60,061 nt of DNA from an uncultured Candidatus Nemicrothrix sp. (GCA_964513285.1 CAZEML010000001.1:6702-66762), one strand, 5' to 3'. Shown: positions 3,578 through 50,130, numbered from the stretch's first letter. Notes: generated from the letters alone by a model not told the origin. A program made the numbers and translations.

Positions 3578-3624
3578 CGCGACACTCCTCGTCCGGGCTG
3601 GACCAAAACCGTCCAGCTGGACGG

Positions 3625-7268: not shown

Positions 7269-7298
7269 CCGATCTGGCGGGTGCCGACGTCGGGGGCT

Positions 7299-7323
7299 GG
7301 TGCATCAGAACGTGTGATGCACC
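7299..7323. terminator. Hairpin between convergent genes (possible bidirectional terminator)
   Basis: GGTGCATCA (7299-7307) / 7-nt loop / TGATGCACC (7315-7323), a perfect 9-bp stem. Lies between the stop at 7268 (+) and the stop at 7367 (-). No U-tract. Confidence 0.45.
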
Positions 7324-7366
7324 GCCTCCACGTTGTTCCCGGCGAGATCGCGAGCGACGGGACCGC

Positions 7367-8329: not shown

Positions 8330-8333
8330 CTCG

Positions 8334-10049
8334 CTACTTGCCCTGGCGCTTCTGGATGTTGGCCCACTCGTCGCGCAGGCCGACCGTGCGGTGGAACATC
8401 GTCGGCGCCGTACCCGGATCATCGTCGAGATCGCGGGCGAAGTACCCGAGCCGCTCGAACTGCACGACCTCACCCGGCGCGATGTCGGCGATGCCGGGCT
8501 CGGCCTTGGCATGACGGATCGTGCGCGACTCCGGGTTGAGCGAAGCGAGGGGATCCTCACCGTCAGCACCGGGATGCGGGTCGGTGAACAACCGCTCGTA
8601 CAGGGCGACGTCGAGATCGACCGCATGGTCGGCGGACACCCAGTGGATCGTGGCCTTCACCTTGCGTCCGTCGGGCGCCTGACCGCCGGCGGTCTCGGGG
8701 TCGTAGGTGCACAGCAGGCGAGTGACCTCGCCGTCGGGGCCGGTCTCGACCTCGTTGCAGGTGATGAAGTAGCCCGCCCGCAGTCGGACCTCACGGCCCG
8801 GCGCGAGCCGGAAGAACTTCTTCGGTGGGTCAACCATGAAGTCGTCGCGCTCGATGAAGAGCCGACCCGAGAACGGAACCTCGCGCGTGCCGGCGGACTC
8901 GTCCTCCGGGTTGTTGATCGCCTCGCGGACATCGGCCTGACCCTCGGGCCAGTTGGTGATGACGACCTCGATCGGGTCGAGCACGACCATGCGCCGCAGC
9001 GCGTTGGCGTTGTGGTGGGTGCGGACGAACGACTCGAGCAGCTCGATCTCGTGGGTGCCGTTGACCTTGGCGATGCCGATGTGACCGGCGAAGTCCCGGA
9101 TCGCCTGCGCGGGGTAGCCCCGACGACGCAGGCCACGAATCGTGGGCATGCGGGCGTCGTCCCAGCCGTCGACATGGCCCTCTTCGACCAGCTGCAGCAG
9201 CTTGCGCTTGCTCAGCACGGTGTGGGGGAGGTTGAGGCGGGCGAACTCGGTCTGACGCGGACGGTCCGAGCCGAGCCCGAGCTGCTCCATGTACCAGTCG
9301 TAGAGCGGCCGGTGACTGTCGAACTCGAGCGTGCACAGCGAGTGGGTCGTGCCCTCGATCGCGTCGGACTGGCCGTGCGCCCAGTCGTAGGTCGGGTACA
9401 CCTTCCAGCGGTCGCCGGTGCGGAAGTGGTGTTCGTCGCGGATCCGGTACATCACGGGATCACGCATCTGCATGTTCTCGTGATTCATGTCGATCTTGGC
9501 CCGCAGCACCCGCGAGCCTTCCTCGAACTCGCCGGCGGTCATCCGGGCGAACAGGTCGAGGTTCTCCTCGACACTGCGGCCGCGCCACGGTGAATCGACC
9601 CCAGGGGTGGTGAAGCCACCGCGGTTGAGCGAGATCGTCTCCGCGTCCTGGTCGTCGACATACGCGAGGCCGGCCTCGATCAACTGCACCGCCCAGGCGT
9701 GGAGCTGCTCGAAGTAGTCCGATGCATAGACGACCGACTCCGGCTCGAAGCCGAGCCAGCGGACATCGTCCTGGATCGCCTCGACGAAGCGTTCGTCTTC
9801 GGTCTCGGGGTTGGTGTCGTCGAACCGCAGCATGGTCGTGCCGCCGAACTCGTCGGCCGCGCCGAAGTTGAGACAGATCGACTTCGCGTGCCCGATGTGC
9901 AGGAACCCGTTGGGCTCGGGCGGGAAGCGGGTTTGCACGCGGCCGCCGTAGGGGCCATCCGACGAATGCTGCTTGAGCATCTCGCGAATGAAGTCGGTGC
10001 CCGAGTTGCTCGTCGGGCCCTCGCGGTCGTCGCCAGGGGTCGCGTTCAC
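8334..10049 (-). CDS. glnS: Glutaminyl-tRNA synthetase
   Basis: FPPEPNGFLHIGHAKSICLNFG (HIGH) and VLSKRKL (KMSKS-like) with collinear similarity to E. coli GlnRS. GTG at 10049 (VNATPGDDREGPTSNSGTDFIREML) gives 571 aa, close to E. coli size. The in-frame ATG at 10133 would overlap the divergent gene start, so the start is uncertain. Confidence 0.85.
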   Translation of the reverse strand: MNATPGDDREGPTSNSGTDFIREMLKQHSSDGPYGGRVQTRFPPEPNGFLHIGHAKSICLNFGAADEFGGTTMLRFDDTNPETEDERFVEAIQDDVRWLGFEPESVVYASDYFEQLHAWAVQLIEAGLAYVDDQDAETISLNRGGFTTPGVDSPWRGRSVEENLDLFARMTAGEFEEGSRVLRAKIDMNHENMQMRDPVMYRIRDEHHFRTGDRWKVYPTYDWAHGQSDAIEGTTHSLCTLEFDSHRPLYDWYMEQLGLGSDRPRQTEFARLNLPHTVLSKRKLLQLVEEGHVDGWDDARMPTIRGLRRRGYPAQAIRDFAGHIGIAKVNGTHEIELLESFVRTHHNANALRRMVVLDPIEVVITNWPEGQADVREAINNPEDESAGTREVPFSGRLFIERDDFMVDPPKKFFRLAPGREVRLRAGYFITCNEVETGPDGEVTRLLCTYDPETAGGQAPDGRKVKATIHWVSADHAVDLDVALYERLFTDPHPGADGEDPLASLNPESRTIRHAKAEPGIADIAPGEVVQFERLGYFARDLDDDPGTAPTMFHRTVGLRDEWANIQKRQGK

Positions 10050-13163: not shown

Positions 13164-14128
13164 GAGGTGAGGGCGTCAGCGGCAGCTCGCCCCGAGAGGA
13201 AGGCGCCCTCGACCTTCGGACCGGCGAACGCCTCGCCCGCGAGGGCGATCAGCGGCGCGCCACCCCACACCACGGTCGGCTCGGGCCAGACCTCGACCGG
13301 ACCCGCATACCGCCAGCGCTGGACCTGCACCGCGTGCGCCCCGTCGAGATCCGCAGCCGGGCCGAGCAGGTCGCGGGCGGCGGCGACCGCTCGCGCCACC
13401 ACCTCGTCGTCGCTCGCGTCCCAGAGTTCGTCGCTCAACGCATTCGAGAGATGAACCGTCACGGCCGGAACCGCCGAGATGCCCTTCGCTCGATTGTCGG
13501 CGACGAACGCCAGCTCGGGGTGATCGAGGTACTGGGCGCCGCCGTGCCGGGCGAGACCGGTCGGATCGGTCGAGGGCGCCAACAACACCGCGATCGTCGG
13601 CTTGTAGTGGATCTCCGCCAACCGAGTCGCCAGGGCGGGGTCGGGCAGCAGACCACAGAACGCGAGGGTGGCGAGTGCTTGGGGAACCGGTGCGGTGTGG
13701 ACGATTGCGTCGACGGGGTCGGCCGCCAACTCATCGCCGAGATCGAGGATGCGCCGACCCAACTCCGGCCGGAGTCCTGCGTCGTCCGCCATCCATTTGC
13801 ACAGCGAGGTCATGCCCTCGCTGCCACGCCAGCGCGGATAGCCGTCCGGCTCCCGGCTGAACCCACGCGTCCATTCGACGACCGAGCCGGCGTCGACCGC
13901 CGCGGCGATCGTCGTCGCGAACGCGTCGCTGCGCGTGGTGAAGAACTGGGCGCCGTGATCGAACCGGGCTGTCCCGTTCGGCGTCTCGAGTCGCCGCGAC
14001 GCCATGCGACCGCCGACGCCTCGGCCCTTGTCGACGATGCGGATGTCGTCGCGGTCGATGCCGAGCTCGAGCAGTCGGCGAGCGGCAGACAGGCCGGCGA
14101 TACCGGCGCCGATGACGAGGACGCGCAT
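13160..14128 (-). CDS. NAD(P)/FAD-dependent oxidoreductase (amine oxidase / renalase-like)
   Basis: MRVLVIGAGIAGLSAARRL dinucleotide-binding motif followed by DKGRGVGGRM. Stop overlaps the downstream gene start (13160-13163). Confidence 0.65.
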   Translation of the reverse strand: MRVLVIGAGIAGLSAARRLLELGIDRDDIRIVDKGRGVGGRMASRRLETPNGTARFDHGAQFFTTRSDAFATTIAAAVDAGSVVEWTRGFSREPDGYPRWRGSEGMTSLCKWMADDAGLRPELGRRILDLGDELAADPVDAIVHTAPVPQALATLAFCGLLPDPALATRLAEIHYKPTIAVLLAPSTDPTGLARHGGAQYLDHPELAFVADNRAKGISAVPAVTVHLSNALSDELWDASDDEVVARAVAAARDLLGPAADLDGAHAVQVQRWRYAGPVEVWPEPTVVWGGAPLIALAGEAFAGPKVEGAFLSGRAAADALTS

Positions 14129-14165
14129 GGGGCGAGTCTGGCAGGCCCGACCTCGCTGTGGCGGG

Positions 14166-15023
14166 TCAGTCCATCAGGGCGTCGGCCCGCACCGGGGCGG
14201 CCGCGGCCGCCCGATGTTCGTCGGTGACCTTGCCGTACAGGCTCCGGATGCGCTGCACGGAGCCGACCGACCCCGCGGCCTCGCTGAACGACATGATCAA
14301 CAGCAACCGGGTCGTGTCACCGAGGTTCGGTGTCACGCGGTGCAGCGAGAAGCGACCGAGGAAGAACTGCAGATCCCCGGGTTGCAGGTCGAGCGTGCGG
14401 ACGCCGTCGCGACCTCCGTCGAGGATGGCGGTGACCCCCGCTTCGTTCTCGTCCGCAGGCGAGCGCAGGTCGGGCACGTACTCGAACTGCCCACCATCGT
14501 CCGCGGCCTGCAACAGCATCGTGATGGTGAATTCGTTGGTGTCGAAGTGCCAGTTGAACTCCTGCCCGGTCCGCTGGACGTTGACGATCATGTTCGAGAC
14601 CGGGTCCTCATAGACGTGGAGCTCGTCCTTGCCGAGACAGTCCTGGAGGAAGTCCTTCAACGGTCCCCAGTCGTAGAGCCGCTTCGACGCGGTGTCGAGA
14701 TCCCATTCGTCGGCGCGCACGAAGCCGTTCGTCCGAGGGAAGAACCGGTTGCGGGGATGGTCGTCGGGTAGGTCGGGGTCGGGGTCGCCCAGATGCACGT
14801 TGGCTTGGTTCTTCGGGTTGTAGAACGCCCTCGGCTCCCGTGCGATCGCCTCCGCCAGGAGGGCCGCGTGACCGGCCTCGCTGAGGAATCCGGGGAGCAC
14901 CGCGCAGCCGTCGTCGGCGAGCGACGCACGGACTTCCGCCACCACGTCACGTCGACGATCACCCGTCGCCGCGATCGGGTAGCGCTCGCTGTCGATGAGG
15001 TCGTGCGGGGCGAGGCCGGACAT
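14166..15023 (-). CDS. Fe(II)/2OG-dependent oxygenase family protein
   Basis: NWHFDTNEF (HxD) and a distal FSLHRV His, ~285 aa. HxD rather than HxG/A argues for a hydroxylase, not a halogenase. Confidence 0.55.
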   Translation of the reverse strand: MSGLAPHDLIDSERYPIAATGDRRRDVVAEVRASLADDGCAVLPGFLSEAGHAALLAEAIAREPRAFYNPKNQANVHLGDPDPDLPDDHPRNRFFPRTNGFVRADEWDLDTASKRLYDWGPLKDFLQDCLGKDELHVYEDPVSNMIVNVQRTGQEFNWHFDTNEFTITMLLQAADDGGQFEYVPDLRSPADENEAGVTAILDGGRDGVRTLDLQPGDLQFFLGRFSLHRVTPNLGDTTRLLLIMSFSEAAGSVGSVQRIRSLYGKVTDEHRAAAAAPVRADALMD

Positions 15024-15070
15024 CGCAAAACTGTACGCGTGTTCAATTTCGAGGGCTAGCGTTCGCCGCC

Positions 15071-15685
15071 ATGGCGGAGATCGATCTGGTGGCGTGGGAC
15101 TTCGGTGACACCCTCGTGCACGAACGCTTCATGCGCATCGCGCCCGACGGCGTCCCCGAGTGGCCGACGGTGTACGACCGGTTCTTCGAAGCCCACCCCG
15201 AGTTCGAGGATCGACTCGATCACGGGCGGGCGTCGATGATCGAGATGATCCCGTGGCTGGCGGAACAGACCGGCATGACGGGATCCGCCGTCGCCCGTCA
15301 CCTCCGTCACGTGTGGACCCAGATCGAATGGTTCGAACCGAGCCGGCGGTGGCTCCTCGGCCTGTCCGGTCGGGTGGCGCAAGCCGTCGTGACCGTGAAT
15401 CCGTTCGAGTTCTCGGGGATGGCGACCGCGTGTGGGCTCGATCCCCACGTCGAACTCATCGTCACGAGCGCCGACATCGGCGACCGCAGCAAGCCCGCGA
15501 TGGCACGGGTCGCCCGCGAGCTGCTCGGCCTCCCGCTGGGCCTCGGCACGACCGTGCTGATCGACAACCGGGCCGACAACGTCGCCGACTTCGTCCGGGA
15601 AGGTGGTCACGCCATCCACTTCCGGCCCGAGGACCCGGGGCGGCTCGACGACGAGCTCGCCCAGTACGTCGGCCCGCCCGGCTGA
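15071..15685 (+). CDS. HAD-superfamily hydrolase
   Basis: Motif I VAWDFGDTLV (DxDxT/L) at the N-terminus, later TSADIG..KP and a VLIDNRADN motif. Confidence 0.65.
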   Translation: MAEIDLVAWDFGDTLVHERFMRIAPDGVPEWPTVYDRFFEAHPEFEDRLDHGRASMIEMIPWLAEQTGMTGSAVARHLRHVWTQIEWFEPSRRWLLGLSGRVAQAVVTVNPFEFSGMATACGLDPHVELIVTSADIGDRSKPAMARVARELLGLPLGLGTTVLIDNRADNVADFVREGGHAIHFRPEDPGRLDDELAQYVGPPG

Positions 15686-15738
15686 GGAAAGGCCCATCAC
15701 CCTCTGATCTGAACTCCGTTCTGACCGATACCGGAGGG

Positions 15739-17739
15739 ATGGGATCCGTCGAGACTCGGTCGCCGAGCTCCGCCACGAGCAGCGCCGCCGATCTCAGGGA
15801 CGACCGCTGGGGCGATCGTCGCTGGGTGAGTTCGGCGATCCGGATCCTCGTCGTCGTCATTCCGATCGCCGCCTCGATCGTGCTCACCCGGTGCTACGTC
15901 GCCGTCGTCGACCGCCCGAGCGGATGGCCCGACCAGCTCCCGTTCTGGGTCGGCGCGTTCGTCGTCGCCATTTCGGCCACGACCGTGGTCGACCGGTTCG
16001 CCCGGCGACTGCTCCCCCTCGCTGCGCTGTTTCGGATGTCGCTCGTGTTCCCCGACGAGGCGCCGAGCCGATTCAAGACCGCCCTGCGGCAGGGCAACCC
16101 GCGGAAGCTCGAGGTCATGCTGCTCACCGGGCAGATCACGAGCTCGGGCGAGGCCGCCCAAGCCCTGCTCGGCCTGATCACCCTCGTCGGTGACCACGAT
16201 CGCCTCACCCGCGGTCACTCCGAACGGGTTCGGGCCTACGCCGAACTCATCGGCGACCAGATGGGGCTCGACGCCGACGAGCTCGAGAAGCTCCGTTGGG
16301 GTGCGTTGATCCACGACGTCGGCAAGCTCACCGTGCCGCCGGAGATCCTGAACAAGCCGGGGCGGCCCGACGACGACGAGTGGCAGATCATCCGCTCCCA
16401 CCCCACCGCGTCCGACGCCTATCTCGAACCGCTGCGGGAGTGGCTCGGCGAGTGGGCCTTGGCCGCGACCGAACACCACGAACGGTTCGACGGCCGCGGC
16501 TACCCGAACGGGCTGGCCGGGGAGCAGATCAGTCGAGCCGGTCGGATCGTGGCCGTCGCCGACGCGTTCGACGTCATGAAGTCGGCTCGCAGCTACAAGA
16601 AGCCACTCAGTCCGGCGATCGCCCGTGAAGAGCTGATCCGCAACGCGGGCTCCCAGTTCGATCCCGACGTGGTGCGAGCGTTCCTCGAGGTGTCGCTCGG
16701 CAAGCTCCGAGTCGTCGTCGGCCCGGTGGCGTGGCTCAACGAGCTCGCCTGGGTGATCCGGGTGCCCGAGACGATCTCGACCGCCGTGGTCGCCGCGGCG
16801 GTGTCCGTCGGCACGGTGGTGGCTCCACTCGACGTCGGTGGGCAGGTCGAGACCGCGCCCGTCGAACGGCTGGTGCCGGAGACGACGATCGCCACGACCA
16901 CCACCACACCACTGACCACGACCACCGTCGCGTCACCGGGTCCCACCACCACGGCGAGTACGCCGCCGGCATCGTCCACGACCAGCAGCAGCTCGACGAC
17001 AGCCGCCCCGACGACGACGGTCACCATCGCCGTCGCCACCACCACCGACGCACCCGCGACGACCAGCCCGGTCACCACCGCGGCCCCCACGACGACGGCC
17101 GCCCCCACGACCACCTCGCCTCCCGCACCGACCACGACGGCCGTCGGGTCGACCACCACGGCACCAGCCACCACCGCCCCGCCGACCACCACCGCGGCGC
17201 CCACGACCACGACGACCACGACCATTCCGACCAGCACGACGACCACCCCGCTGCCCGGACTCGGCCTCACCGGCTTCGGCTTCGAGCCGACCGACCCGGG
17301 CGACCTTCCGTCGTCGCTCGCCGACGGCAACCTCACGTCCAACGATCATGTCTTCATCTGGAAGGAGGCGACCGTGGAGTTGGGCGCCTCGATGAACCTC
17401 CGAGAGCCGGGGGTCGGCGGCTGGGTCAACGGCGATGGCGACACCATCGTGACGATCCCCGCCGGCACCAGGCTCTGCGTCTACCACCTCCACGCTGATC
17501 CGAGTTCGGGGGAGCCGGACATGAATGCCGGCATCGACTTCCTCGATCCGGTCGTCGGCCTGACCCTGCGCGAGACCGATCTCGATGCGACGGACCAGTT
17601 CGAGATCGGCGGCGTCGCGTACCACACCGATGGGCTGTGGACCCTCGATCGCCTCAAGGTCGACGGCTCGTATGTCGAACTCGAATTGGACGGCACCGGG
17701 AGCAGCCGAGATCAGCTCCGCATCTTCACCGAGTGCTGA
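15739..17739 (+). CDS. Membrane HD-GYP phosphodiesterase paralog A (2 TM - HD-GYP - TM - Thr/Pro stalk - conserved C-terminal domain)
   Basis: ATG at 15739 preceded by GGAGGG. LIHDVGK (HD) and HHERFDGRGYP (GYP) motifs are intact. Hydrophobic segments lie at the N-terminus and after the HD-GYP domain. A TTTTPLTTTT...APTTT low-complexity linker follows. C-terminal ~155 aa end in SRDQLRIFTEC. The upstream 193 codons of track ORF 15160-17739 overlap the HAD gene and are Arg/Pro-rich. Confidence 0.85.
   Translation: MGSVETRSPSSATSSAADLRDDRWGDRRWVSSAIRILVVVIPIAASIVLTRCYVAVVDRPSGWPDQLPFWVGAFVVAISATTVVDRFARRLLPLAALFRMSLVFPDEAPSRFKTALRQGNPRKLEVMLLTGQITSSGEAAQALLGLITLVGDHDRLTRGHSERVRAYAELIGDQMGLDADELEKLRWGALIHDVGKLTVPPEILNKPGRPDDDEWQIIRSHPTASDAYLEPLREWLGEWALAATEHHERFDGRGYPNGLAGEQISRAGRIVAVADAFDVMKSARSYKKPLSPAIAREELIRNAGSQFDPDVVRAFLEVSLGKLRVVVGPVAWLNELAWVIRVPETISTAVVAAAVSVGTVVAPLDVGGQVETAPVERLVPETTIATTTTTPLTTTTVASPGPTTTASTPPASSTTSSSSTTAAPTTTVTIAVATTTDAPATTSPVTTAAPTTTAAPTTTSPPAPTTTAVGSTTTAPATTAPPTTTAAPTTTTTTTIPTSTTTTPLPGLGLTGFGFEPTDPGDLPSSLADGNLTSNDHVFIWKEATVELGASMNLREPGVGGWVNGDGDTIVTIPAGTRLCVYHLHADPSSGEPDMNAGIDFLDPVVGLTLRETDLDATDQFEIGGVAYHTDGLWTLDRLKVDGSYVELELDGTGSSRDQLRIFTEC
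16880..17250 (+). repeat. Thr/Pro/Ala-rich low-complexity coding repeat (stalk of paralog A)
   Basis: Runs of ACC/ACG/CCG/GCC codons encoding TTIATTTTTPLTTTTVASPGPTTTAS...APTTTTTTTIPTSTTTTP. Confidence 0.9.
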
Positions 17740-17763
17740 CGCGAACCCCGAGTGGAATTCTGT

Positions 17764-17789
17764 GAGACTCAGGATGAATTCCTGAGTCT
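17764..17789. promoter_or_regulatory. Perfect 10-bp inverted repeat upstream of furA (candidate FurA operator, or terminator of the preceding gene)
   Basis: AGACTCAGGA (17765-17774) - TGAAT - TCCTGAGTCT (17780-17789). Sits in a locally AT-richer stretch flanked by two GAATTC sites, 26 nt after the paralog A stop and ~40 nt before the furA start. Confidence 0.45.
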
Positions 17790-17830
17790 GACTCTTGACC
17801 AAGTCCAGAATCGGTGCTGTACTCCCCGAC

Positions 17831-18256
17831 GTGAGCGACTCGACCGGGCCCGACATCGCGCAGGAACTGCGCGACCACGGACTCCAGGTGACCGCCCAGC
17901 GCATCGCCGTGATGGAGGCCGTCACCGGCCACCCCCACACCACGCCTGATGAGCTGGCCGAAGTCGTCCGCAACAAGATCGGGTCGATCTCCCGCCAGGC
18001 GGTGTACGACACGCTCGGGGTCTTCGTCGAGAAGAACCTCGTCCGTCGGATCCAGCCGAGCGGATGGGTTGCCCGGTACGAGGCGCGGGTGGGAGACAAT
18101 CACCACCATCTCGTGTGCCGAGGGTGCGATCTGATGTATGACATCGACTGTGCCGTGGGCTACACGCCGTGTCTCACCGCTGACGACGACCATGGGTTCG
18201 TGATCGACGAAGCCGAAGTCGTCTACTGGGGCATGTGCCCCGCCTGCCAGGCCTAG
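17831..18256 (+). CDS. furA: Fur-family peroxide-responsive regulator (FurA type)
   Basis: [24 protein letters not shown] winged helix, [10 protein letters not shown] and C-terminal CPAC. Lies immediately upstream of katG as in mycobacteria and streptomycetes. GTG 17831 is preferred over the TTG at 17795 used by the track, so the start is uncertain. Confidence 0.8.
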
Positions 18257-18319
18257 CCCGGCCGGGGCCGCTCCGTGGTCCCCACCCCTCACCGCAGCAA
18301 CAGAAGCAAAAGGAATCAC

Positions 18320-20461
<2,142 letters not shown>

Positions 20462-20471
20462 GGTCCTGAGT

Positions 20472-20490
20472 CTCCGGCCTCGGTCCGGAG
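20472..20490 (+). terminator. Short hairpin just after the katG stop
   Basis: CTCCGG (20472-20477) / loop / CCGGAG (20485-20490), 11 nt after the TGA. Weak, with no U-tract. Confidence 0.3.
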
Positions 20491-20550
20491 CGAGTGATCT
20501 GCAGCTCGACTGCAGCGAGTGATCTGCGGCGCAGCCGCAGCAAGTGACAG
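20490..20550 (+). repeat. 25-nt tandem repeat (about 2.4 copies), each unit with its own small palindrome
   Basis: GCGAGTGATCTGCAGCTCGACTGCA (20490-20514) and GCGAGTGATCTGCGGCGCAGCCGCA (20515-20539), then GCAAGTGACAG. Units contain CTGCAG..CTGCAG and CTGCGG..CCGCAG stems. The third partial unit includes the annotated GTG of paralog B. Confidence 0.8.
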
Positions 20551-22454
20551 ACACCCCGTCGGTTGGCTTCGGTCACCGGCGGGGTGTCGTCGTTTTGGTG
20601 GTCGAACGAGCCTGGATCCGGACGGTGTTCGGCCGATGGGAGACGGTGACCATCACCGATGGGACGGCCGTCGCCACCGCGGCCGACTTCGACGAAGAGC
20701 GCTGGAAGGATCGCCGGCTGACCAGCTGGTCGATCCGCCTCGTCGCGGCGGCGCTGCCGTTGCTCGCCGCCGCGGTCGTCACGGCGCTGCACCTGTCGGT
20801 GTTCGAGCGTCCCGCCGACGCGCTGCCGCTGGCCGCGTTCTGGGCTGGGGTACTCGCCGGCGCGGCCGTCACCGCGGTGTTCCTCAGTCGATGGACGCGC
20901 CGGCTGTTGCCGCTGGCCGGGCTCTTCCGCATGACGCTCGCCTTTCCCGGCGAGGCGCCGAATCGGTTCGCCGTCGCCCTCCGGGAGACGAATGCCGGCC
21001 GGCTCGAAACCCAGCTGATCGCGGGCTCGACCGACCCGCACGCCTCCGCGGCCCGCAACCTCATTTCGCTGGTCGGTCTGCTGCGGCACCACGATCACGC
21101 CACCCGCGGCCACTCCGAACGGGTCGCGACCTATGCGGCCTTGATCGGTGAGCAGATGGGGCTGAGCCCCGACGAGATCGACAAGCTGCGGTGGGCCGCC
21201 CTCATTCACGACATCGGCAAGCTGTCGGTGCCGCCTCGCGTCCTGAACGCGGTGGACCCGCTGAGCGACGAGGACCATCTCCTCATCCGCAACCACCCGG
21301 TCGCCGCGACGGCATACCTCGGGGTGGTGTCCGCCTGGCTCGGCGAGTGGGCCTTGGCGGGTTTGGAGCATCACGAACGCTGGGATGGCTCGGGCTACCC
21401 GGCCGGACTCCGCGGCGACGCGATCGGGCGCGCCGGTCGGATCGTGGCGGTCGCCGACGCCTACGACGTCATGACCGCGGCGGCGAGCTACCGAAGCCCA
21501 CTTCCGGTCGGTCAGGCCCGTGAGGAGTTGGCTCGCTGTGCCGGCACCCAGTTCGACCCGGCGGTGGTGCACGCGCTCCTGCAGATCCCCCACCGGCGCC
21601 TCCGCCTCCTGCTCGGTCCGTCCGGGTGGCTGAACGACCTCGCGTGGATTCCGCGCCTCTCGACGGGAACGAAGATCGCCATCGGCACGGCGATCGCCAC
21701 ACTCGGGGTGGCCGCGGGGACGGCCGTGCTGCTGGACCCGACGCCGACCACCGGACCCGAGCTCGCGGCCGAACGGGTGGTGGAGGACGGCACGACCACG
21801 ACCACCACGACGACGACCAGCCAACCGGCGACGAACGTCCTGGGTGAGACCGCCGTGGAAGAACCGGCGGCGGATCGTCCGAGCGCACCACCGCTCGACC
21901 TGCCCGAGACGACGATTCCGCACCGAACGCCGACGACCACCACGACACCGCCACTGGTCGCGTTGGCGACGGTGTCCGAGCCCACCGGGGTCGGTTTCGT
22001 CCTCATCGACCCGTCCGACCTGCCACGGCACCTCGGCGACGGGGAGCTCACCTCGAACGACCACGCCTTCGTGTGGTTCGAGCCGTCGACGACGCTCGAC
22101 ACCGACGTCCAGGTGAACTCGATCGGCGACGGTGGCGTGTTCGCCGGCGACTCCACCACGACGACCGTGCTTTCCGGCGGCGTGACCGTGTGTCCTGCGT
22201 TCGTCCATGTCGACCCTGCCGACTCGCTCGAAGCGGTCGTCGTCGAACTCGACTTCGGGGTCGCGCCGCTCGGGATCGTGCTCCGAGGCGAAGACCTCGA
22301 CGCCACCCGAAGCTTCGGGGTCGAGGGCGTCGACCACCGCAGCGACGGGATGAGCGCTGACGACGTCGGCTCGATCGACGGGACGACGATCCGCCTGCTG
22401 CTGACCCACAGCGTCGCGGGCCGCGACCAGCTCCGGCTCTTCTTCCCCTGCTGA
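20544..22454 (+). CDS. Membrane HD-GYP phosphodiesterase paralog B
   Basis: Same architecture as A: RWKDRRLTSW, TM segments, RRLLPLAGLFRMTLAFPGEAPNRF, LIHDIGK, HHERWDGSGYP, TTTTTTTTTS / TPTTTTTPP linker, C-terminal domain ending GRDQLRLFFPC. Start uncertain: in-frame GTGs at 20625 and 20646 would match the N-terminal length of the paralogs better. Confidence 0.8.
   Translation: MTDTPSVGFGHRRGVVVLVVERAWIRTVFGRWETVTITDGTAVATAADFDEERWKDRRLTSWSIRLVAAALPLLAAAVVTALHLSVFERPADALPLAAFWAGVLAGAAVTAVFLSRWTRRLLPLAGLFRMTLAFPGEAPNRFAVALRETNAGRLETQLIAGSTDPHASAARNLISLVGLLRHHDHATRGHSERVATYAALIGEQMGLSPDEIDKLRWAALIHDIGKLSVPPRVLNAVDPLSDEDHLLIRNHPVAATAYLGVVSAWLGEWALAGLEHHERWDGSGYPAGLRGDAIGRAGRIVAVADAYDVMTAAASYRSPLPVGQAREELARCAGTQFDPAVVHALLQIPHRRLRLLLGPSGWLNDLAWIPRLSTGTKIAIGTAIATLGVAAGTAVLLDPTPTTGPELAAERVVEDGTTTTTTTTTSQPATNVLGETAVEEPAADRPSAPPLDLPETTIPHRTPTTTTTPPLVALATVSEPTGVGFVLIDPSDLPRHLGDGELTSNDHAFVWFEPSTTLDTDVQVNSIGDGGVFAGDSTTTTVLSGGVTVCPAFVHVDPADSLEAVVVELDFGVAPLGIVLRGEDLDATRSFGVEGVDHRSDGMSADDVGSIDGTTIRLLLTHSVAGRDQLRLFFPC
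21740..21960 (+). repeat. Thr/Pro-rich low-complexity coding repeat (stalk of paralog B)
   Basis: ACG/ACC runs encoding DGTTTTTTTTTSQP ... HRTPTTTTTPP. This is the shortest stalk of the four. Confidence 0.85.
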
Positions 22455-22528
22455 CCGGGTTCGGCACGCGACGACGGGTAGGTCATGCGCCCCATTGAGC
22501 GCGGGGGTGCCCGTGCCGATGGAGTTCC

Positions 22529-24502
22529 GTGCGCACAACAGGAAGCGCGGCGACCACCAGCGCCGCCGATCTCACCGAGCACCGGTGGGCGGCCCGGAGA
22601 GTCCTGAGCTGGACGCTGCGCGCCGTCGTCATCGTCATCCCGGTGGCGGCAGCCCTCGCCGCCACCCGGCTCTACCTCGGCGTCTTCAGCCGACCCGACG
22701 CGCTCCTCCCCCAGGTCGCCTTCTGGCTCGGTGCGCTCGTGCTGTCCGTCGCCGCGTCGATCGCAGTGGAGCGATGGTCGCGGCGACTCCTGCCGCTCGC
22801 CGTGCTGTTTCGGATGTCGTTGGTCTTCCCCGATGAAGCACCGAGTCGCTTCCGGGTCGCACTTCGTGAGGGCAACTCCAAGAAGCTCGACCTCAGCGCC
22901 GAAGGCAGCGCCGCGCAGAATCTGGTGACGCTCGTCGGGGTGCTCAGCCGTCACGATCGCCTGACCCGCGGCCACTCCGAACGCGTTCGCGCCTACGCCG
23001 AGTTGATCGGCACGGAGATGGGGCTCGAGCCCGAGGAGCTCGAGAAGCTCCGGTGGGGCGCGCTGATCCACGACATCGGCAAGCTGACCGTGCCCCCGGA
23101 GCTGCTCAACAAAGCCGGCAAGCCCACCGACGAGGAGTGGCAGATCATCCGAGCCCACCCAGCGGCGTCGGAGGCGTACCTCGGCGCGATCTCCCCATGG
23201 CTCGGCGAGTGGGCCAAGGCCGCCGAGGAACATCACGAGCGCTGGGACGGTGGCGGATACCCGGCCGGGTTGGCGGGTGAAGAGATCAGCCGAGCTGGAC
23301 GCATCGTCGCCGTCGCCGACGCCTACGACGTGATGACGTCAGCCCGCAGCTACAAGCAGGCGCTGAGTCCCTCACTCGCGCGCGAGGAGCTCGCTCGTAA
23401 CGCCGGCAGCCAGTTCGACCCCGAGGTCGTGCGGGCGATGCTGCGCGTCTCGCTCGGCAAGCTCCGCCTGGTCCTCGGACCGCTCGGTTGGCTGAACGAG
23501 TTGGCGTGGGTCTCTCAGGTGCCGCAAGCCGCAACGACGGCTGCGGTCACCGCCTCGACGGCCGCCATGGTCAGTGTCGGCGCCGTCATCGCCGTCGAGC
23601 CACCGGCCGAACCGGCCGAAGCGGCCGCGGTCGAACGCGTCGTCGAGATCGACGAAGACGCTCCATCCACGACCACCCTCGTGGCCCAACCGACCACCAC
23701 GCTGACCGCCATCGGCGTGGAGCCGTCAGCAGCACCGAGCACCACGACAACGACGACCTCGCCCGCTTCCACCACGACGACCACCGGGGCACCGACCACC
23801 ACGCTCGCCGCCGTTGCGGCCGGACCGGCGGTCACCACCACCACGACGTCGCCCGCACCGGCGCCGACGATCCCGACCACGGCACCTACGCCGACCACGA
23901 CCACCGTGCCGCCCACCACGACCGCGCCGACGACCACCGCTGCGCCAGCCACGACGACGACCGGGGCACCGACCACGACCACCGTGCCGCCCACCACGAC
24001 GCCGCCCACAACCGTGCCCGTCGCGCCGGACCCGACCGGATCCGGCTTCGTCATGGTCGACGTCGCCAGTCTCCCGGCGCACCTCGGCAACGGCCAGCTC
24101 ACCTCGAGCGACCACATGTTCGTCTGGTCAGAGGGCGCCAAGATCGTGGCCGCACCGGTGACGCTGCGATCCTTCACCGACGGTGAAGGTTTTGACGGGT
24201 CGAGCAACGCGACGGTGACCGTTCCGAGCGGCACCTGGGTGTGCACGTACTTCGTGCACTACGACCCCGACTGGATCGTCGATGATCGAAGCATCGAACT
24301 GGACTTCGGCACCGTCCCCCTCGGCTTCGCGATGCAAAACAGTGACCTCGACGCCACCCATGGCTACGGCGCGCCGATCGATCACCGAACCGACGGCCTC
24401 GGCGTCGCGGACACCGGCGAGGTCCAGGGCACGTCCATCACCTTTACGTTCGACTACAGCTTCTTCGGGCGAGACCAGGTCCGGATCTTCCTCCCCTGCT
24501 GA
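22529..24502 (+). CDS. Membrane HD-GYP phosphodiesterase paralog C
   Basis: GTG start 74 nt after the B stop. Has HRWAARRVLSW, TMs, RRLLPLAVLFRMSLVFPDEAPSRF, LIHDIGK, HHERWDGGGYP, a long STTTTTTSPASTTTTTGAPTTT... stalk, and a C-terminal domain ending GRDQVRIFLPC. Confidence 0.85.
   Translation: MRTTGSAATTSAADLTEHRWAARRVLSWTLRAVVIVIPVAAALAATRLYLGVFSRPDALLPQVAFWLGALVLSVAASIAVERWSRRLLPLAVLFRMSLVFPDEAPSRFRVALREGNSKKLDLSAEGSAAQNLVTLVGVLSRHDRLTRGHSERVRAYAELIGTEMGLEPEELEKLRWGALIHDIGKLTVPPELLNKAGKPTDEEWQIIRAHPAASEAYLGAISPWLGEWAKAAEEHHERWDGGGYPAGLAGEEISRAGRIVAVADAYDVMTSARSYKQALSPSLAREELARNAGSQFDPEVVRAMLRVSLGKLRLVLGPLGWLNELAWVSQVPQAATTAAVTASTAAMVSVGAVIAVEPPAEPAEAAAVERVVEIDEDAPSTTTLVAQPTTTLTAIGVEPSAAPSTTTTTTSPASTTTTTGAPTTTLAAVAAGPAVTTTTTSPAPAPTIPTTAPTPTTTTVPPTTTAPTTTAAPATTTTGAPTTTTVPPTTTPPTTVPVAPDPTGSGFVMVDVASLPAHLGNGQLTSSDHMFVWSEGAKIVAAPVTLRSFTDGEGFDGSSNATVTVPSGTWVCTYFVHYDPDWIVDDRSIELDFGTVPLGFAMQNSDLDATHGYGAPIDHRTDGLGVADTGEVQGTSITFTFDYSFFGRDQVRIFLPC
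23665..24030 (+). repeat. Thr/Pro/Ala-rich low-complexity coding repeat (stalk of paralog C)
   Basis: Repeated PTTT / APTTTT units, e.g. GAPTTTTVPPTTT occurs twice. Confidence 0.9.
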
Positions 24503-24552
24503 GCTGACGCACCACAACCCGACACGGCGCTGAGCCAGTAGCTTGGGCGGCC

Positions 24553-26406
24553 GTGGCACGAGGGACTTCCACGGGGCAGCGCTGGCGCGACCGTCGTTTC
24601 GTCAGCTGGGGGCTGCGGCTCGTCGTCTTCGCCGCGCCGATCGCCGCTGGCGTCCTCGCGGTGTGGGTGTACACGAGGTTCGTCGATCGGCCGGCCGCGT
24701 TCTTCGCCCAGCTCCTGTTCTGGCTCGTCGCGATCGCGATCGCCGTGGTCGCGGGGCTCGCCGTCGACCGCGTCACCCGGCGGCTCTTGCCGGTCGCCAT
24801 GCTGTTCCGAATGTCGCTGGCCTTCCCCGGCGAGGCCCCCAATCGGCTCGCCCTCGCATTCGGGAAGGGCCCGGTCTCGGCGTCGGCACTGGAGTCGACC
24901 ACCAAGCTGAGCAGCGACGACACCGCCGCGCGACATCTCCTCGCCCTCGTCTCGATCCTCGCCCGCCACGACCCGCGAACGGGTGGCCACTCCGAACGAG
25001 TCCGGGCCTACGCCGACATGATCGCGACCGAGATGGGACTGTCGCCCGCCGCGCTCGACCGCGTGCGCTGGGGCGCCCTGATCCACGACATCGGCAAGCT
25101 GTCGGTCCCGCCCGAGATCCTCGGTGGCGGCGACCGTCCATCGCCGGAGGAGTGGGCGATGATCCGCGACCACGCGATCGGGTCCGAACCGTTCCTGTTC
25201 GCCGTCACCGACTGGCTGGGCGACGGCGCCCTCGCGGCGGTGCAGCATCACGAACGCTGGGACGGTGCCGGCTACCCGGACGGCCTCGCCGGCGACGAGA
25301 TCAGCCTCGTGGCTCGCATCGTCTCCGTCGCCGACACCTACGACGCGATGACCTCGACCCGCAGCTACCGGGAGCCGTTGCGTCCGAGCATGGCTCGCGA
25401 ACAGGTCGCCCGACAGGCCGGCGCCCAGTTCGACCCGAAGGTGGTCGCCGCGTTCCTCGACGTACCGGTGTGGCGACTCCGTCTCGTCCTCGGACCCCTC
25501 GGCTGGCTGAACGAGTTCTTGTGGTTCACCCGACTGCCGCACGCCGCGACCGGCGCTGCCGTCACCGCCGCGGTGGTCGGCGTCTTCGGCCTCGGGGGCG
25601 CGATCGTGTTCTCGTCCCCCGCCGACTCCTCCGATGGCGACGAGGACGACGTCGTCGCGCCGGTCGAGACGAGCACGACGACCACCAGCTCCACCACGAC
25701 GACCAGCACGTCCACCACCACGACCCAGCCGCCGGCGACGACCACCCCGACGACGACCTCGATCGTGCTGACCACCACCTCGACCTCGACGACGACCACG
25801 AGCACCACCACGACGACCACGACGGTGGCGCCGACCACGACCGCGGCTCCTCCACCGACGACCACTGCTGCACCGCCGACCACCACCACGACGACGACCA
25901 CCACCACGACCCTCGCCCCGACCCCGCCCGAGCCGACCGGGACCGGGTTCACGATCGTCGACCCGGCGACCCTTCCGGCCGACCTCGGCGACGGCGAGCT
26001 CACCTCGGACACCGACGTGTTCGTGTGGGCGGAGGGCATCGCCACCACCGCGGCCGACATCGAGCTCCGCTCGTTCACCGACGGCGTCCCCGTGCCGGGC
26101 GACAGCGCGACGACCGCCACGCTCGCGTCCGGCACGCAGGTCTGCACCTACCTCGTGCACGCCGACCCGATCGGTGCGGCGACCCCGTTCACCACCGAGC
26201 TCGACTTCGGCGTCGTGCCCCTCGGCTTCGCGTTGACGACACTCGATCTCCAAGACACCGACGAATTCGAGATCGACGGCGTCGACCATCAGCTCGATGG
26301 GTTCGAGAGCACCGACGTCGTGACCGTCGACGGCACCATGATCACGATCGACCTGGTCTCGACCGCGGGCAGCCGCGATCAGGTCCGGATCTTCATTCCC
26401 TGCTGA
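24553..26406 (+). CDS. Membrane HD-GYP phosphodiesterase paralog D
   Basis: GTG start 50 nt after the C stop. Has QRWRDRRFVSW, TMs, RRLLPVAMLFRMSLAFPGEAPNRL, LIHDIGK, HHERWDGAGYP, a TSTTTTSSTTTTSTSTTTTQPPATTTPTTT... stalk, and a C-terminal domain ending SRDQVRIFIPC. Confidence 0.85.
   Translation: MARGTSTGQRWRDRRFVSWGLRLVVFAAPIAAGVLAVWVYTRFVDRPAAFFAQLLFWLVAIAIAVVAGLAVDRVTRRLLPVAMLFRMSLAFPGEAPNRLALAFGKGPVSASALESTTKLSSDDTAARHLLALVSILARHDPRTGGHSERVRAYADMIATEMGLSPAALDRVRWGALIHDIGKLSVPPEILGGGDRPSPEEWAMIRDHAIGSEPFLFAVTDWLGDGALAAVQHHERWDGAGYPDGLAGDEISLVARIVSVADTYDAMTSTRSYREPLRPSMAREQVARQAGAQFDPKVVAAFLDVPVWRLRLVLGPLGWLNEFLWFTRLPHAATGAAVTAAVVGVFGLGGAIVFSSPADSSDGDEDDVVAPVETSTTTTSSTTTTSTSTTTTQPPATTTPTTTSIVLTTTSTSTTTTSTTTTTTTVAPTTTAAPPPTTTAAPPTTTTTTTTTTTLAPTPPEPTGTGFTIVDPATLPADLGDGELTSDTDVFVWAEGIATTAADIELRSFTDGVPVPGDSATTATLASGTQVCTYLVHADPIGAATPFTTELDFGVVPLGFALTTLDLQDTDEFEIDGVDHQLDGFESTDVVTVDGTMITIDLVSTAGSRDQVRIFIPC
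25670..25935 (+). repeat. Thr/Ser/Pro-rich low-complexity coding repeat (stalk of paralog D)
   Basis: Almost pure ACC/ACG/AGC/CCG codon runs encoding (S/T)TTTT units. Confidence 0.9.
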
Positions 26407-26436
26407 GGCTTCATCCCTGCTGACGCAGGCCGGCCA

Positions 26437-27726
26437 CTACTCGGGCCAGGGCACCCCGTAGTCCTCGAACCACCAGCGCGCCTCACGGATCGCGTTGGGG
26501 TCGGTGCGGAGGTCGGGATCCTGGTTGAGCTGCTCGGGCGTGGGGCCGATCTCGGCCGCGATGTCGGTCAGCGCCGCCTCGTCGAGGTCGTAGCACTTGA
26601 CCGCGTTGAGGCCGAGCAGCAGCCGGGTCTCCTCGATCGGGATCTGCTGGAAGTCGGTCTCGAGCCGCACTTTGGTGTTGGGCCACGAGCCCTCCGGGTG
26701 CGGGTAGTCGGTCCCCCACATGAGGGCATCGATGCCGTTGACGTAGCGGCGACGGAGTTCGACCTTGCTCATCGTCGAGGCCCCGATGAAGACGTTCTCG
26801 CCGACGTACTCCGACGGGAGGCGCTGGATGAGCCCGTGGGTGCGGGAGCTCATCTTCTTCACCTTCCAGTTGGTGCCACCGAACATCACGTCCGTCTTCC
26901 AGAGCAGATCGCCCAGCCACCACGAGCCACACTCGACCGGCGCGTATTTGAAGTTCGGGTACTTGTCGAACTTGCCGGACAGCAGGAACTGCCACAGCGG
27001 ACGGTGGGTCCAGAAGGCCACCTCGAGCATGTACTGGGCCATGTTCTCGTTGTACGCCTCGGCGTCGGCCTCACCGGAGTGGGTGTGCACGACGAGCCCG
27101 GTCTCGTGGCAGGCCTGCCAGATCGGGTCGTACATCTCGTGGCCGTAAGACGGGGCGTCGTGCCACATCGTCGGGATCATGATGCCCTTGATGCCGGGCT
27201 TGTCGGCGAGCGCGTAGATCTCCTTCACCGACTCCTCGACACCGTGGGTGATCGGCACGAGGGCGACACCGGCCCGCCGCGGCGGGTTGGTGGCGCAGAA
27301 CTCCTCGAGCCAACGGTTGTGAGCCCGTGCGCCCGCCCACGCCAGCTTCGGATCGGTGATCGCACCAGCGTGCAGGCCGGCGCCGAACGGCGGCGCTTCC
27401 ATCCCGGTGACCGCGTCGCCGTCGGCGAAGATCACCTCGCCGGCGATGCCGTCGGCGTCGAGCGCCTTGTCGCGGATCTCGGGGTCGTAGGCGCCCTTGA
27501 GGCCCCACTCGTTCTCACGTTCCCACTGTTCGACGTACTCGCCGTTCATCTCCTCGACCATCGCCCGGTGTTCGTGGCGGGTCTGGAGCCATTCGTCGAA
27601 CTCCGCGTGCACGGAGCTCTCCAAGTACTCGCGGTAGTCCTCGACGTAGAGGCCAGCGTGGGTGTCGGAGCTGACGATGATGTACGGGTCGTTGGACTGA
27701 TCGACGCCTTCGAGTGGATTCGGCAT
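26437..27726 (-). CDS. Metal-dependent amidohydrolase (amidohydrolase-2 / ACMSD-like TIM barrel)
   Basis: Start at Met30 of the track ORF (MPNPLEGVD). IIVSSDTHAG near the N-terminus, HTHSGE, and WGTDYPHPEG near the C-terminus fit the PF04909-type metal ligand pattern. Confidence 0.6.
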   Translation of the reverse strand: MPNPLEGVDQSNDPYIIVSSDTHAGLYVEDYREYLESSVHAEFDEWLQTRHEHRAMVEEMNGEYVEQWERENEWGLKGAYDPEIRDKALDADGIAGEVIFADGDAVTGMEAPPFGAGLHAGAITDPKLAWAGARAHNRWLEEFCATNPPRRAGVALVPITHGVEESVKEIYALADKPGIKGIMIPTMWHDAPSYGHEMYDPIWQACHETGLVVHTHSGEADAEAYNENMAQYMLEVAFWTHRPLWQFLLSGKFDKYPNFKYAPVECGSWWLGDLLWKTDVMFGGTNWKVKKMSSRTHGLIQRLPSEYVGENVFIGASTMSKVELRRRYVNGIDALMWGTDYPHPEGSWPNTKVRLETDFQQIPIEETRLLLGLNAVKCYDLDEAALTDIAAEIGPTPEQLNQDPDLRTDPNAIREARWWFEDYGVPWPE

Positions 27727-27760
27727 GCCGACAAGGGTCTCAGGCGGCACGGTCGCGACG

Positions 27761-27786
27761 CAAACCTGACGGTCCGTCAGGGTTTG
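27761..27786. promoter_or_regulatory. Near-perfect 12/13-bp inverted repeat in a divergent promoter region
   Basis: CAAACC-TGACGG T CCGTCA-GGGTTTG (one extra base in the right arm). Nested inside a weaker outer repeat GGTCTCAGG (27736-27744) ... CCTGAGGTCC (27789-27798). Lies between the divergent starts at 27726 (-) and 27861 (+). Confidence 0.45.
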
Positions 27787-27860
27787 GCCCTGAGGTCCCG
27801 GGCGCCATGTCACAGCGGTGACCTACGGTTGCGTCACGAGCGGATGAGAGGACCGGCGGA

Positions 27861-29171
27861 ATGGCCCTGTTCAAGAAAGCCGTTGCGGCGGCCAGTGGAA
27901 AGATGTCGCCGCCTGGTGCCATCGGTGGAGCCGGCCGATCTGGCGGTGCCGTTGGCGTTGACCATCACTTCGCGTTCGTGGACGTCGAGACGAATGGGTT
28001 GAAGCCGGGCAAAGACCGGATTCTCGAGATCGCGATCCTGATCACTGACGGCCTCGGTCGCGAACTCGGCCAATGGTCCACCCTTGTGAACCCGGGCGAT
28101 GGGAATGCCGGCCGGACCGATATCCACCTCATTGAGGCCGACTGGCTGGTCGCTGCGCCCACGTTCGCCGACGTCGCGGGCGACGTTGCCGCATGGCTCA
28201 CCGGGCGCGTTCTCGTCTGCCACAACTCCGACTTCGACAGCGGTTTCATCGATGCAGAGTTTGAGCGCGCCGGGCACCCGATCGCTCACCTGGCGATGCC
28301 CGTGGTCGACACCATGAGCCTCGCGAACACGGTCGGCCTTCCCCGAGCGCTCAAGAAGGCTTGCGCAGAGCTGGGCTATCGGTACGACTCACACAACGCG
28401 CTCGACGATGCCCGTGCGTGCGCAGAGCTCTTCCACCGGCTGTTGCCGCTCGTCGACAAGGCGACATTCAAAGGGGTGACTGCGGTGCCGGTCACCGTGT
28501 CTACGCCTCCGAGCGGCAAGACGGTAGCTCGCGGCGAAGCTTCCGTTGCCGTTCGGCCCCGATCTGTGCTCTCGGACTTCACCACGAACCTCTGGGCCCA
28601 CAACCCTTACGCCAATCATGACCAAGCTGGCCTGACCCGCTACCGCGAGACTGTTCTCGCGGCTCTCGAGGACGGGTACATCGACCGCACCGAGCAACAC
28701 GCCATGGCGACCATTGCCCATGAACTACAACTCTCCGTTGAAGACGTCGAGCAACTCCACCATGAGGTGATTCTCGAACTCCTCGATGCTGCCCTAGAAG
28801 ATCGGCGGATCTCGAAAACGGAGCGCAACGAGATCGAGACCGCTGCCGTGTGGCTCGGCGTCGATCTCTCCAACTGGGACGATCTCGTCAAGGCGGGCCG
28901 AGCGCGGGTCAAGCACGCACGACAGGAATTCGCAGCATCGATCGCTGGCCGGACCGTGCACTTCACTGGGAAGGGCGTCCACCCCGCCAACATTCGTGAG
29001 GCGCTCGCCTCAAAGAACGGGCTCAACGTGGCGAAATCGCTCACGAAGTCCGTTGACCTGCTCGTGGTCGGCCGTGAGGACCTCGAAAGCACGACCGTCA
29101 CCAAGGCCCGGGAGGCAGGTGTGGAGATCCTGGCCGAGGCCACGCTGTGGGCCCGGCTCGGAGAGTCATAG
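27861..29171 (+). CDS. DEDDh 3'-5' exonuclease (DnaQ/epsilon-like) with helical middle region and C-terminal BRCT domain
   Basis: Exo I FVDVETNGL, Exo II VCHNSDFDSGF, Exo III YDSHNALDDARACAELF. Middle repeats of the type YIDRTEQHAMATIAHEL / RISKTERNEIETAAVWL are TerB/DjlA-N-like. The C-terminus GRTVHFTGKGVH...LLVVGRED...KAREAGVEILAEATLW is BRCT-like. Local GC was ~63% in two 100-nt samples I counted, against ~70% in katG. Confidence 0.75.
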   Translation: MALFKKAVAAASGKMSPPGAIGGAGRSGGAVGVDHHFAFVDVETNGLKPGKDRILEIAILITDGLGRELGQWSTLVNPGDGNAGRTDIHLIEADWLVAAPTFADVAGDVAAWLTGRVLVCHNSDFDSGFIDAEFERAGHPIAHLAMPVVDTMSLANTVGLPRALKKACAELGYRYDSHNALDDARACAELFHRLLPLVDKATFKGVTAVPVTVSTPPSGKTVARGEASVAVRPRSVLSDFTTNLWAHNPYANHDQAGLTRYRETVLAALEDGYIDRTEQHAMATIAHELQLSVEDVEQLHHEVILELLDAALEDRRISKTERNEIETAAVWLGVDLSNWDDLVKAGRARVKHARQEFAASIAGRTVHFTGKGVHPANIREALASKNGLNVAKSLTKSVDLLVVGREDLESTTVTKAREAGVEILAEATLWARLGES

Positions 29172-50076: not shown

Positions 50077-50130
50077 CGACTGACTCCTCTGACCGGCCCC
50101 GAGACACGACACGGGGCGACAACAAGTCAG

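Follow-up and report, generated by a model that had tools for sequence, protein, structure and literature searches.

A tandem array of membrane HD-GYP proteins with stalked, probably extracytoplasmic C-terminal domains in an uncultured Candidatus Nemicrothrix

The gene array

Four paralogous genes, designated here A to D, encode membrane HD-GYP proteins within a stretch of 60,061 nucleotides from an uncultured Candidatus Nemicrothrix sp. (GCA_964513285.1, CAZEML010000001.1:6702-66762). This whole stretch is referred to below as the window; its GC content is approximately 68-70% throughout. An original prediction, made from the sequence alone, had described four open reading frames (ORFs) on the + strand, and an ORF scan recovered every one of them. 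With the exception of one start site, discussed below, the coordinates stand.

Gene A (15739-17739, + strand, 666 amino acids) was delimited by its ORF and translation, by a match to Pfam HD_5 (E 2.7e-34) and by hydropathy. It encodes two transmembrane segments, TM1 (15826-15882) and TM2 (15934-15990), the HD-GYP domain (16180-16671), a third hydrophobic segment (16774-16830), then a stalk rich in Thr and Pro and finally a C-terminal domain (CTD, 17263-17736). In gene B (20625-22454, + strand, 609 amino acids from the GTG at 20625 or possibly 602 from the GTG at 20646), the HD-GYP domain occupies 21078-21566, the third hydrophobic segment 21675-21731 and the CTD 21978-22451. Genes C (22529-24502, + strand, 657 amino acids) and D (24553-26406, + strand, 617 amino acids) were each recognized by ORF, HD_5 match and hydropathy. 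The parts of C are TM1 at 22601-22657, TM2 at 22712-22768, HD-GYP at 22940-23428, the third segment at 23540-23596, the stalk at 23609-24025 and the CTD at 24026-24499; those of D are TM1 at 24613-24669, TM2 at 24709-24765, HD-GYP at 24946-25443, the third segment at 25555-25611 and the CTD at 25930-26403.

As had been proposed, a single domain order is common to the four products: a basic N-terminus, a two-helix membrane hairpin, a juxtamembrane motif, an HD-GYP domain with intact motifs, a third and weakly hydrophobic segment, a Thr/Pro stalk and a CTD of about 158 amino acids. The motifs quoted in the original prediction (RW.DRR..SW, RRLLP(L/V)A.LFRM(S/T)L.FP.EAP.R(F/L), LIHD(I/V)GK and HHER(F/W)DG.GYP) are all present in the alignment. 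B, C and D can be aligned to A from end to end with 44-55% identity. When the four are compared pairwise by region, the HD-GYP domains are 55-77% identical, the surroundings of the third segment 37-57% and the CTDs 37-51%, and the picture of similar catalytic cores with diverging outer parts therefore holds; the long identical runs that had been noted exist between A and C and are limited to that pair. Gene C has mixed affinities, its core being nearest to A (77%) and its CTD nearest to D (51%, versus 37% with A), which could reflect recombination between paralogs or a faster evolution of the CTD of A.

The gaps between B and C and between C and D measure 74 and 50 nucleotides, as first reported, and neither contains a terminator-like site on the + strand. 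The start of A at 15739 is supported by an ortholog (P0002) that begins at the equivalent site, and a longer version of the ORF, opening at 15160, has a non-coding pattern of GC by codon position. The start first assigned to B, 20544, is probably too far upstream. An ORF beginning there encloses a GC-rich, terminator-like hairpin with a T-run (20552-20595, + strand) that lies 3' of katG; the database gene call (P0008, 609 amino acids) starts at 20625 and an ortholog (P0004) at the position equivalent to 20646. The start of B was revised on these grounds.

The catalytic domain

All four proteins contain complete HD-GYP domains. Each matches Pfam HD_5 (PF13487), with E-values between 2e-31 and 8.5e-38 and scores of 109-130 bits, above the curated Pfam threshold of 27.2. 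By sequence, the product of gene C matches the solved HD-GYP enzymes V-cGAP3 (5Z7C, E 4e-35), PmGH (4MCW, E 4e-32) and PA4781 (4R8Z, E 1e-25), and in the alignment the HD-GYP motifs of A to D fall opposite their counterparts in 4MCW and 5Z7C. An AlphaFold2 (AF2) model of gene C residues 1-377, built on 100 family sequences, reached a predicted local distance difference test score (pLDDT) of 81 and a predicted template-modelling score (pTM) of 0.71. Its core superposes on PA4781 (4R8Z) and DvhD (9RBZ) with target-normalised TM-scores of 0.75-0.79 (E ~1e-9) and also matches the PmGH structure.

The catalytic positions H..HD..K..H..HHE..DG.GYP..D, together with downstream D/R positions, are invariant or nearly so across 100 family members; A to D are predicted to be active enzymes and not degenerate receptors. 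From their sequences they probably degrade cyclic di-GMP (c-di-GMP), although these data do not decide between c-di-GMP and 3'3'-cyclic GMP-AMP (3'3'-cGAMP). Gene D has no precomputed Pfam entry in the public collection, yet hmmscan finds HD_5 in it at 4.9e-35.

Membrane topology

Hydropathy reveals three hydrophobic segments in each of A to D. In the AF2 model of gene C, TM1 (residues 24-52) and TM2 (residues 59-95) are long helices with pLDDT values of 87-98. The loop that joins them has a median length of 12 residues over the family and of 7-18 residues in A to D, so that no folded extracytoplasmic domain fits between the two helices and the canonical N-terminal sensor is absent. Among 60 family members, the mean number of Lys plus Arg residues is 3.6 before TM1 and 3.4 after TM2. 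Past the third segment it falls to 0.5, against a mean of 2.2 for Asp plus Glu, leaving an acidic flank poor in Lys and Arg. This charge bias fits an N-terminus and HD-GYP domain inside and a C-terminus outside; for the last two, positive-inside logic had led to the same assignment in the original prediction.

In 116 of the 120 closest relatives a hydrophobic segment follows the GYP motif at a distance of 90-100 residues, and we tentatively infer that this third segment spans the membrane. Hessa-type sums give it a median of +2.9 kcal/mol; TM1 and TM2 score +1.8 and +0.8, and the best window of the soluble core reaches about +10. The proposed extracytoplasmic location of stalk and CTD is supported by three further lines of evidence, detailed below: CTD relatives have signal peptides ahead of the domain and PEP-CTERM anchors after it, two cysteines of the CTD co-occur, and in sister proteins this position is taken by Big_9, cadherin-like or PA14 domains. 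Judged from these sequence features, the stalk and CTD are very probably outside the cell.

After the hairpin comes the motif RRLLPLA.LF.MSL.FP..AP.RF, whose family-specific prolines P89, P101 and P105 are invariant in 100 of 100 aligned members. Residues 101-105 are among the least confident stretches of the AF2 model. This proline region appears to be a candidate coupling or interaction element.

The stalk and the C-terminal domain

The stalks are 76-139 residues long, with 29-52% Thr and 12-17% Pro, and are encoded by imperfect ACC/ACG/CCG repeats; with such a composition they should be flexible. The CTDs that follow gave no Pfam match at E <=10 and no NCBIfam match at E <=0.1. A sequence-profile search of the PDB returned nothing significant (best E 0.9), nor did Foldseek searches with the CTD model against the PDB (best E 0.5, TM <=0.30) or BFVD (best E 0.014 at TM 0.15), and in these searches the domain matched no characterised family. 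PA14-like Epa adhesins, considered as a fold match, were rejected as noise (TM 0.28, probability <=0.11). The AF2 model of the gene C copy, built on 36 sequences, has a pLDDT of 96.6, a pTM of 0.92, 13 beta-strands and one short helix; the CTD is a confidently predicted all-beta fold without a PDB counterpart.

A profile made from the four window copies was searched exhaustively against 1.84 billion representative proteins and found 412 representative clusters (50% identity) at E <=1e-3, of which 63 were at E <=1e-10. By this measure of sequence the CTD is a real, fairly large and unmodelled domain family. Its relatives include proteins of about 200 amino acids composed of a signal peptide, the CTD and a PEP-CTERM anchor, proteins with two or three CTD copies in tandem, and a bitopic membrane protein (P0136). 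In some relatives the CTD is fused to TSP1, EGF and HYR domains, in others to a GH44 glycoside hydrolase, an N-methyl pilin-like leader or a TadE-like leader. These contexts other than HD-GYP all appear, from their sequences, to be extracytoplasmic, and mostly related to adhesion or glycans. A sensor role for the CTD is plausible but an assumption. A product of 129 amino acids (P0121), filed as a separate protein encoded by the window, is the C-terminal end of D, and many of the CTD 'proteins' in databases are comparable 3' fragments of such genes.

Across 129 aligned CTDs, E36 and R153 are invariant, and almost the same holds for D150 (127/129), D129, G69, G100, D80 and H78. Of these copies, 72 have both Cys73 and the terminal Cys158 and 50 have neither, with only seven discordant (concordance 122/129). 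A disulfide bond would leave just such a pattern of co-occurrence, which speaks for an oxidising environment outside the cell; the CTD would accordingly be stapled in this way. The window proteins end in ...RIFxPC, without a PEP-CTERM signal, which is confined to the distant relatives.

The wider family

Searches with gene C retrieved 'HD-GYP domain-containing proteins' of about 600-700 amino acids from metagenome-assembled genomes (MAGs) of Actinomycetota and Acidimicrobiia. In 116 of the best 120 relatives the GYP motif is followed by the hydrophobic segment and then by a tail of 150-700 amino acids, 30-50% of it Thr, Pro and Ser. The original prediction had implied that the architecture is rare, which is wrong: it is present in all of these 116 relatives, across several actinobacterial lineages, and among the Acidimicrobiia and other Actinomycetota of soil and water the family is abundant. 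A profile of the N-terminal hairpin retrieved no more than 76 sequences, all short fragments, from which family size could not usefully be counted.

When the tails of 117 relatives were clustered, 47 were Big_9/cadherin-like, 36 contained the window-type CTD, 22 formed an unannotated class, six consisted of pentapeptide repeats and the rest were singletons. The position behind the HD-GYP core is therefore modular, occupied by the CTD, by Big_9/cadherin-like, PA14 or pentapeptide modules, or by a further unannotated class. Members of this last class (P0017, P0018, P0019, P0025 and 18 others) measure about 200-370 amino acids and take the same position behind the core.

Loci in MAGs of Acidimicrobiia, Gaiellaceae, Frankiales and Mycobacteriales have one copy each with the core complete, and the tails there include Big_9/cadherin-like and PA14 domains. 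These other lineages show one copy per 20-kb locus and no linkage to katG. Several metagenome contigs of the same species repeat the gene order A-furA-katG-B-C-D. A related MAG (GCA_039193795.1, locus L001) has orthologs of A, B and D around furA-katG and no C. With single copies elsewhere, the expansion of the array is local, and the suggestion of a lineage-specific expansion is upheld, the tandem array being found only in this species and its close relative L001. The L001 locus also encodes, at 2684-4174, between amine oxidase and HalD genes, an extra HD_5 protein of 496 amino acids that is absent from the window; it is of a soluble type and matches the catalytic core, not the membrane hairpin.

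Relation to known systems

Characterised HD-GYP proteins (PmGH, PA4781, DvhD, V-cGAP3 and the RpfG family) share with A to D the Pfam HD_5 assignment, the motif residues and the fold. They are, however, soluble or preceded by N-terminal REC, GAF or PAS domains, whereas in A to D the domain is internal, lying between membrane segments and followed by a C-terminal ectodomain. To our knowledge, the input domains of every c-di-GMP enzyme characterised by experiment precede the catalytic domain. A census of the HD-GYP proteins (Galperin and Chou, bioRxiv 10.1101/2021.11.05.467447) describes the domain as typically C-terminal to N-terminal sensor domains, names dCache, PBPb and CHASE2 as its extracytoplasmic partners, and states that no HD-GYP protein with an extracytoplasmic sensor has been characterised experimentally; its text is silent on C-terminal ectodomains, on cadherin or PA14 partners and on Actinobacteria. 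Full-text literature searches for HD-GYP together with Acidimicrobiia, or with a C-terminal extracellular, periplasmic or sensor domain, likewise found no description of the layout. This is a widespread HD-GYP architecture that has apparently so far escaped description, combined with an unmodelled ectodomain family.

The dCache-, PBPb- and CHASE2-HD-GYP proteins resemble A to D in being membrane-bound and in presumably tying an outside cue directly to cyclic-dinucleotide hydrolysis. Their sensor, however, is located between two N-terminal helices with the HD-GYP domain at the C-terminus, whereas A to D have a loop of about 12 residues in that place and the outside module at the C-terminus. The functionally closest analogies are found outside the HD-GYP enzymes. 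In PASTA Ser/Thr kinases of Gram-positive bacteria, such as PknB, a cytoplasmic effector is followed by a helix and a C-terminal extracellular module, and some RsgI anti-sigma factors carry PA14 or CBM modules. In RsgI proteins an inside effector is joined through a membrane helix to a binding module that lies C-terminal and outside the cell (PMC12203970). Both have the same overall logic as A to D, in which the effector is instead a second-messenger hydrolase, the membrane segments number three and not one, and no sequence relationship exists. Stalked, swappable outer modules joined to a membrane-flanked catalytic domain are an arrangement otherwise known from these kinases and anti-sigma factors.

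Two further comparisons concern the outer domain. The PEP-CTERM surface proteins, of which the flocculation-associated PepA is one (NCBIfam NF033554; PMC9850573), include distant CTD homologs that consist of a signal peptide, the CTD and the PEP-CTERM anchor. These homologs score below threshold against the PepA model (E ~1e-7, about 30 bits, cutoff 80). The window CTDs, in contrast, do not match the PepA/PEP-CTERM models (NF033554, TIGR02595); a conserved Cys closes their sequence, and their fusion partner is an enzyme. The CSS-domain c-di-GMP phosphodiesterases, exemplified by PdeC (PMC5897775), are membrane phosphodiesterases that, like A to D, have two conserved cysteines in the outside domain. 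The CSS domain of these enzymes sits in the N-terminal part, enclosed by TM1 and TM2, and acts together with an EAL domain; both its sequence and its predicted fold are unrelated to the CTD. To extend this analogy to a redox role for the CTD cysteines would be pure speculation.

Proposed mechanism and alternatives

We consider it reasonably probable that A to D are tandem paralogs within a large, unnamed actinobacterial family of membrane HD-GYP proteins, in which binding by the outer CTD tunes cyclic-dinucleotide hydrolysis. The N-terminus and the HD-GYP domain would be cytoplasmic, with the stalk and the disulfide-stapled CTD outside. The CTD would bind an extracellular polymer or surface, most likely a component of glycan, matrix or cell envelope. 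Since the stalk is long and flexible, engagement of the ligand would act most likely through clustering or dimerisation, or else through tension on the third membrane segment. The juxtamembrane segments that clamp the catalytic domain would then change geometry, thereby tuning the hydrolysis of c-di-GMP (or 3'3'-cGAMP). With outer domains more diverged than cores, the four copies may report on different outside ligands.

Several observations weigh against this scheme. The third segment is rich in Ala, Gly, Thr and Val and only marginally hydrophobic, and in the AF2 model it is a coil (residues 339-357, pLDDT <50) with no helix, for which reason the outside placement of the C-terminus rests on indirect evidence. 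The length and flexibility of the stalk make a rigid or classical allosteric coupling unlikely, and the coupling from binding to enzyme is speculative. No GGDEF or PilZ gene was present among the window ORFs scanned, which otherwise encode ordinary metabolic enzymes, and a c-di-GMP circuit is here assumed. Among the relatives examined, the CTD was joined to no signalling output except HD-GYP; by the usual argument that sensor domains are promiscuous, it has more the appearance of a module for binding or adhesion.

One alternative is unlikely but deserves serious attention, namely that the outer module is an anchor or adhesin and not an input. The protein would either tether a constitutively active HD-GYP domain, depleting c-di-GMP locally, or serve for surface display, and catalysis would not be regulated. 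The occurrence of the CTD elsewhere in surface, adhesion and glycan-active proteins (PEP-CTERM, pilin-like, GH44, TSP1, EGF and HYR contexts), the Big_9, cadherin-like or PA14 nature of the sister modules and the long, flexible stalk would all suit such a role. Mere display, however, would not require an intact cytoplasmic enzyme in every copy, and the invariant juxtamembrane motif and a conserved helix before the third segment flank the core in 100 of 100 aligned members, which suggests a coupling element. The sole difference between an anchor and the proposed receptor is a change of activity upon binding.

The coil predicted at residues 339-357 and the positive Hessa-type median of the third segment would also be compatible with a linker that is no membrane helix at all, in which case the linker and CTD would be cytoplasmic and A to D would be HD-GYP proteins anchored by two transmembrane segments with a cytoplasmic accessory domain. 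We regard this as quite improbable, given that TM1, at +1.8, is hardly more hydrophobic and yet confidently modelled, that the segment recurs 90-100 residues past GYP in 116 of 120 relatives, and that the flank behind it is acidic and poor in Lys and Arg. In members of the CTD family, moreover, a signal peptide can precede the domain and a PEP-CTERM anchor follow it, the two cysteines are present or absent together in the manner of a disulfide, and Big_9, cadherin-like or PA14 domains occupy the same position in sister proteins. An even slimmer chance attaches to regulated proteolysis, whereby ectodomain binding would trigger cleavage in or near the third segment, with the HD-GYP domain losing one membrane attachment or the ectodomain being shed. 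By analogy, RsgI-type anti-sigma factors of the same topology are cleaved in the transmembrane helix (PMC12203970), and the Ala/Gly-rich, helix-weak third segment may resemble the substrates of intramembrane proteases. No protease gene is linked to the array, however, nor was a cleavage motif identified, and the catalytic domain would in any event stay membrane-bound through TM1 and TM2.

If the proposed receptor function is correct, the arrangement would offer a route by which little-studied, mostly uncultured actinobacteria could link contact with a surface or matrix to second-messenger levels. The outer domain adds a new family, counted at 412 or more clusters at 50% identity, whose confidently predicted fold lacks a PDB counterpart, and the four paralogs are a natural set in which ligand specificity could be mapped. 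Practical consequences will stay modest until activity and topology have been shown. More tentatively, and with some doubt on our part, the family may constitute an undescribed class of outside-in second-messenger receptors, in which a membrane-clamped phosphodiesterase is combined with interchangeable stalked modules that engage the matrix of the cell itself, glycans of the cell wall or foreign surfaces and signal by clustering or tension. If that were true, monoderm Actinomycetota would have in these proteins a way of feeding contact or matrix sensing into c-di-GMP control, the four-gene array would amount to a receptor panel with different ligand specificities and the CTD to a new disulfide-stapled beta fold.

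Genomic context

Between A and B lie furA (17795-18256, + strand; FUR, E 1.3e-15) and katG (18275 or 18320 to 20461, + strand; peroxidase, E 3.7e-67). The corresponding furA-katG pair of L001 is at 7213-9864. We considered whether the array and furA-katG are functionally linked and rejected the idea: the adjacency occurs only in the same species and L001, not in 22 other family loci, and is probably incidental. HD-GYP enzymes use iron centres, and a redox link between furA-katG and the array is at most conceivable.

The intergenic region between katG and B contains a 25-nucleotide direct repeat in 2.5 copies (20485-20547, + strand; consensus CCGCAGCGAGTGATCTGCAGCGCAA) with internal palindromes, which from its sequence is a possible operator upstream of B-C-D. 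The hairpin at 20552-20595, from its structure in sequence, is likely the katG terminator; other terminator-like sites did not exceed the frequency expected from shuffled sequence, this plausible hairpin being the exception. A promoter scan found no sigma-70-like sites, a result that is uninformative in an actinobacterium of 70% GC, and an Rfam search of 14000-28000 found no riboswitch or other RNA element.

Two further ORFs in the window have coding signatures and no Pfam match. One (15071-15685, + strand, 204 amino acids), with a strong signature and a GC content at third codon positions (GC3) of 0.88, ends 53 nucleotides 5' of A. Neither at the DNA level nor in translation does it match the L001 locus, where the gap from HalD to A is only about 110 nucleotides. 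Its N-terminus, MAEIDLVAWDFGDTLV, has what we take to be the look of a HAD-like hydrolase, a putative assignment. The other (47666-50125, - strand, 819 amino acids) has a coding-like GC3 of 0.83.

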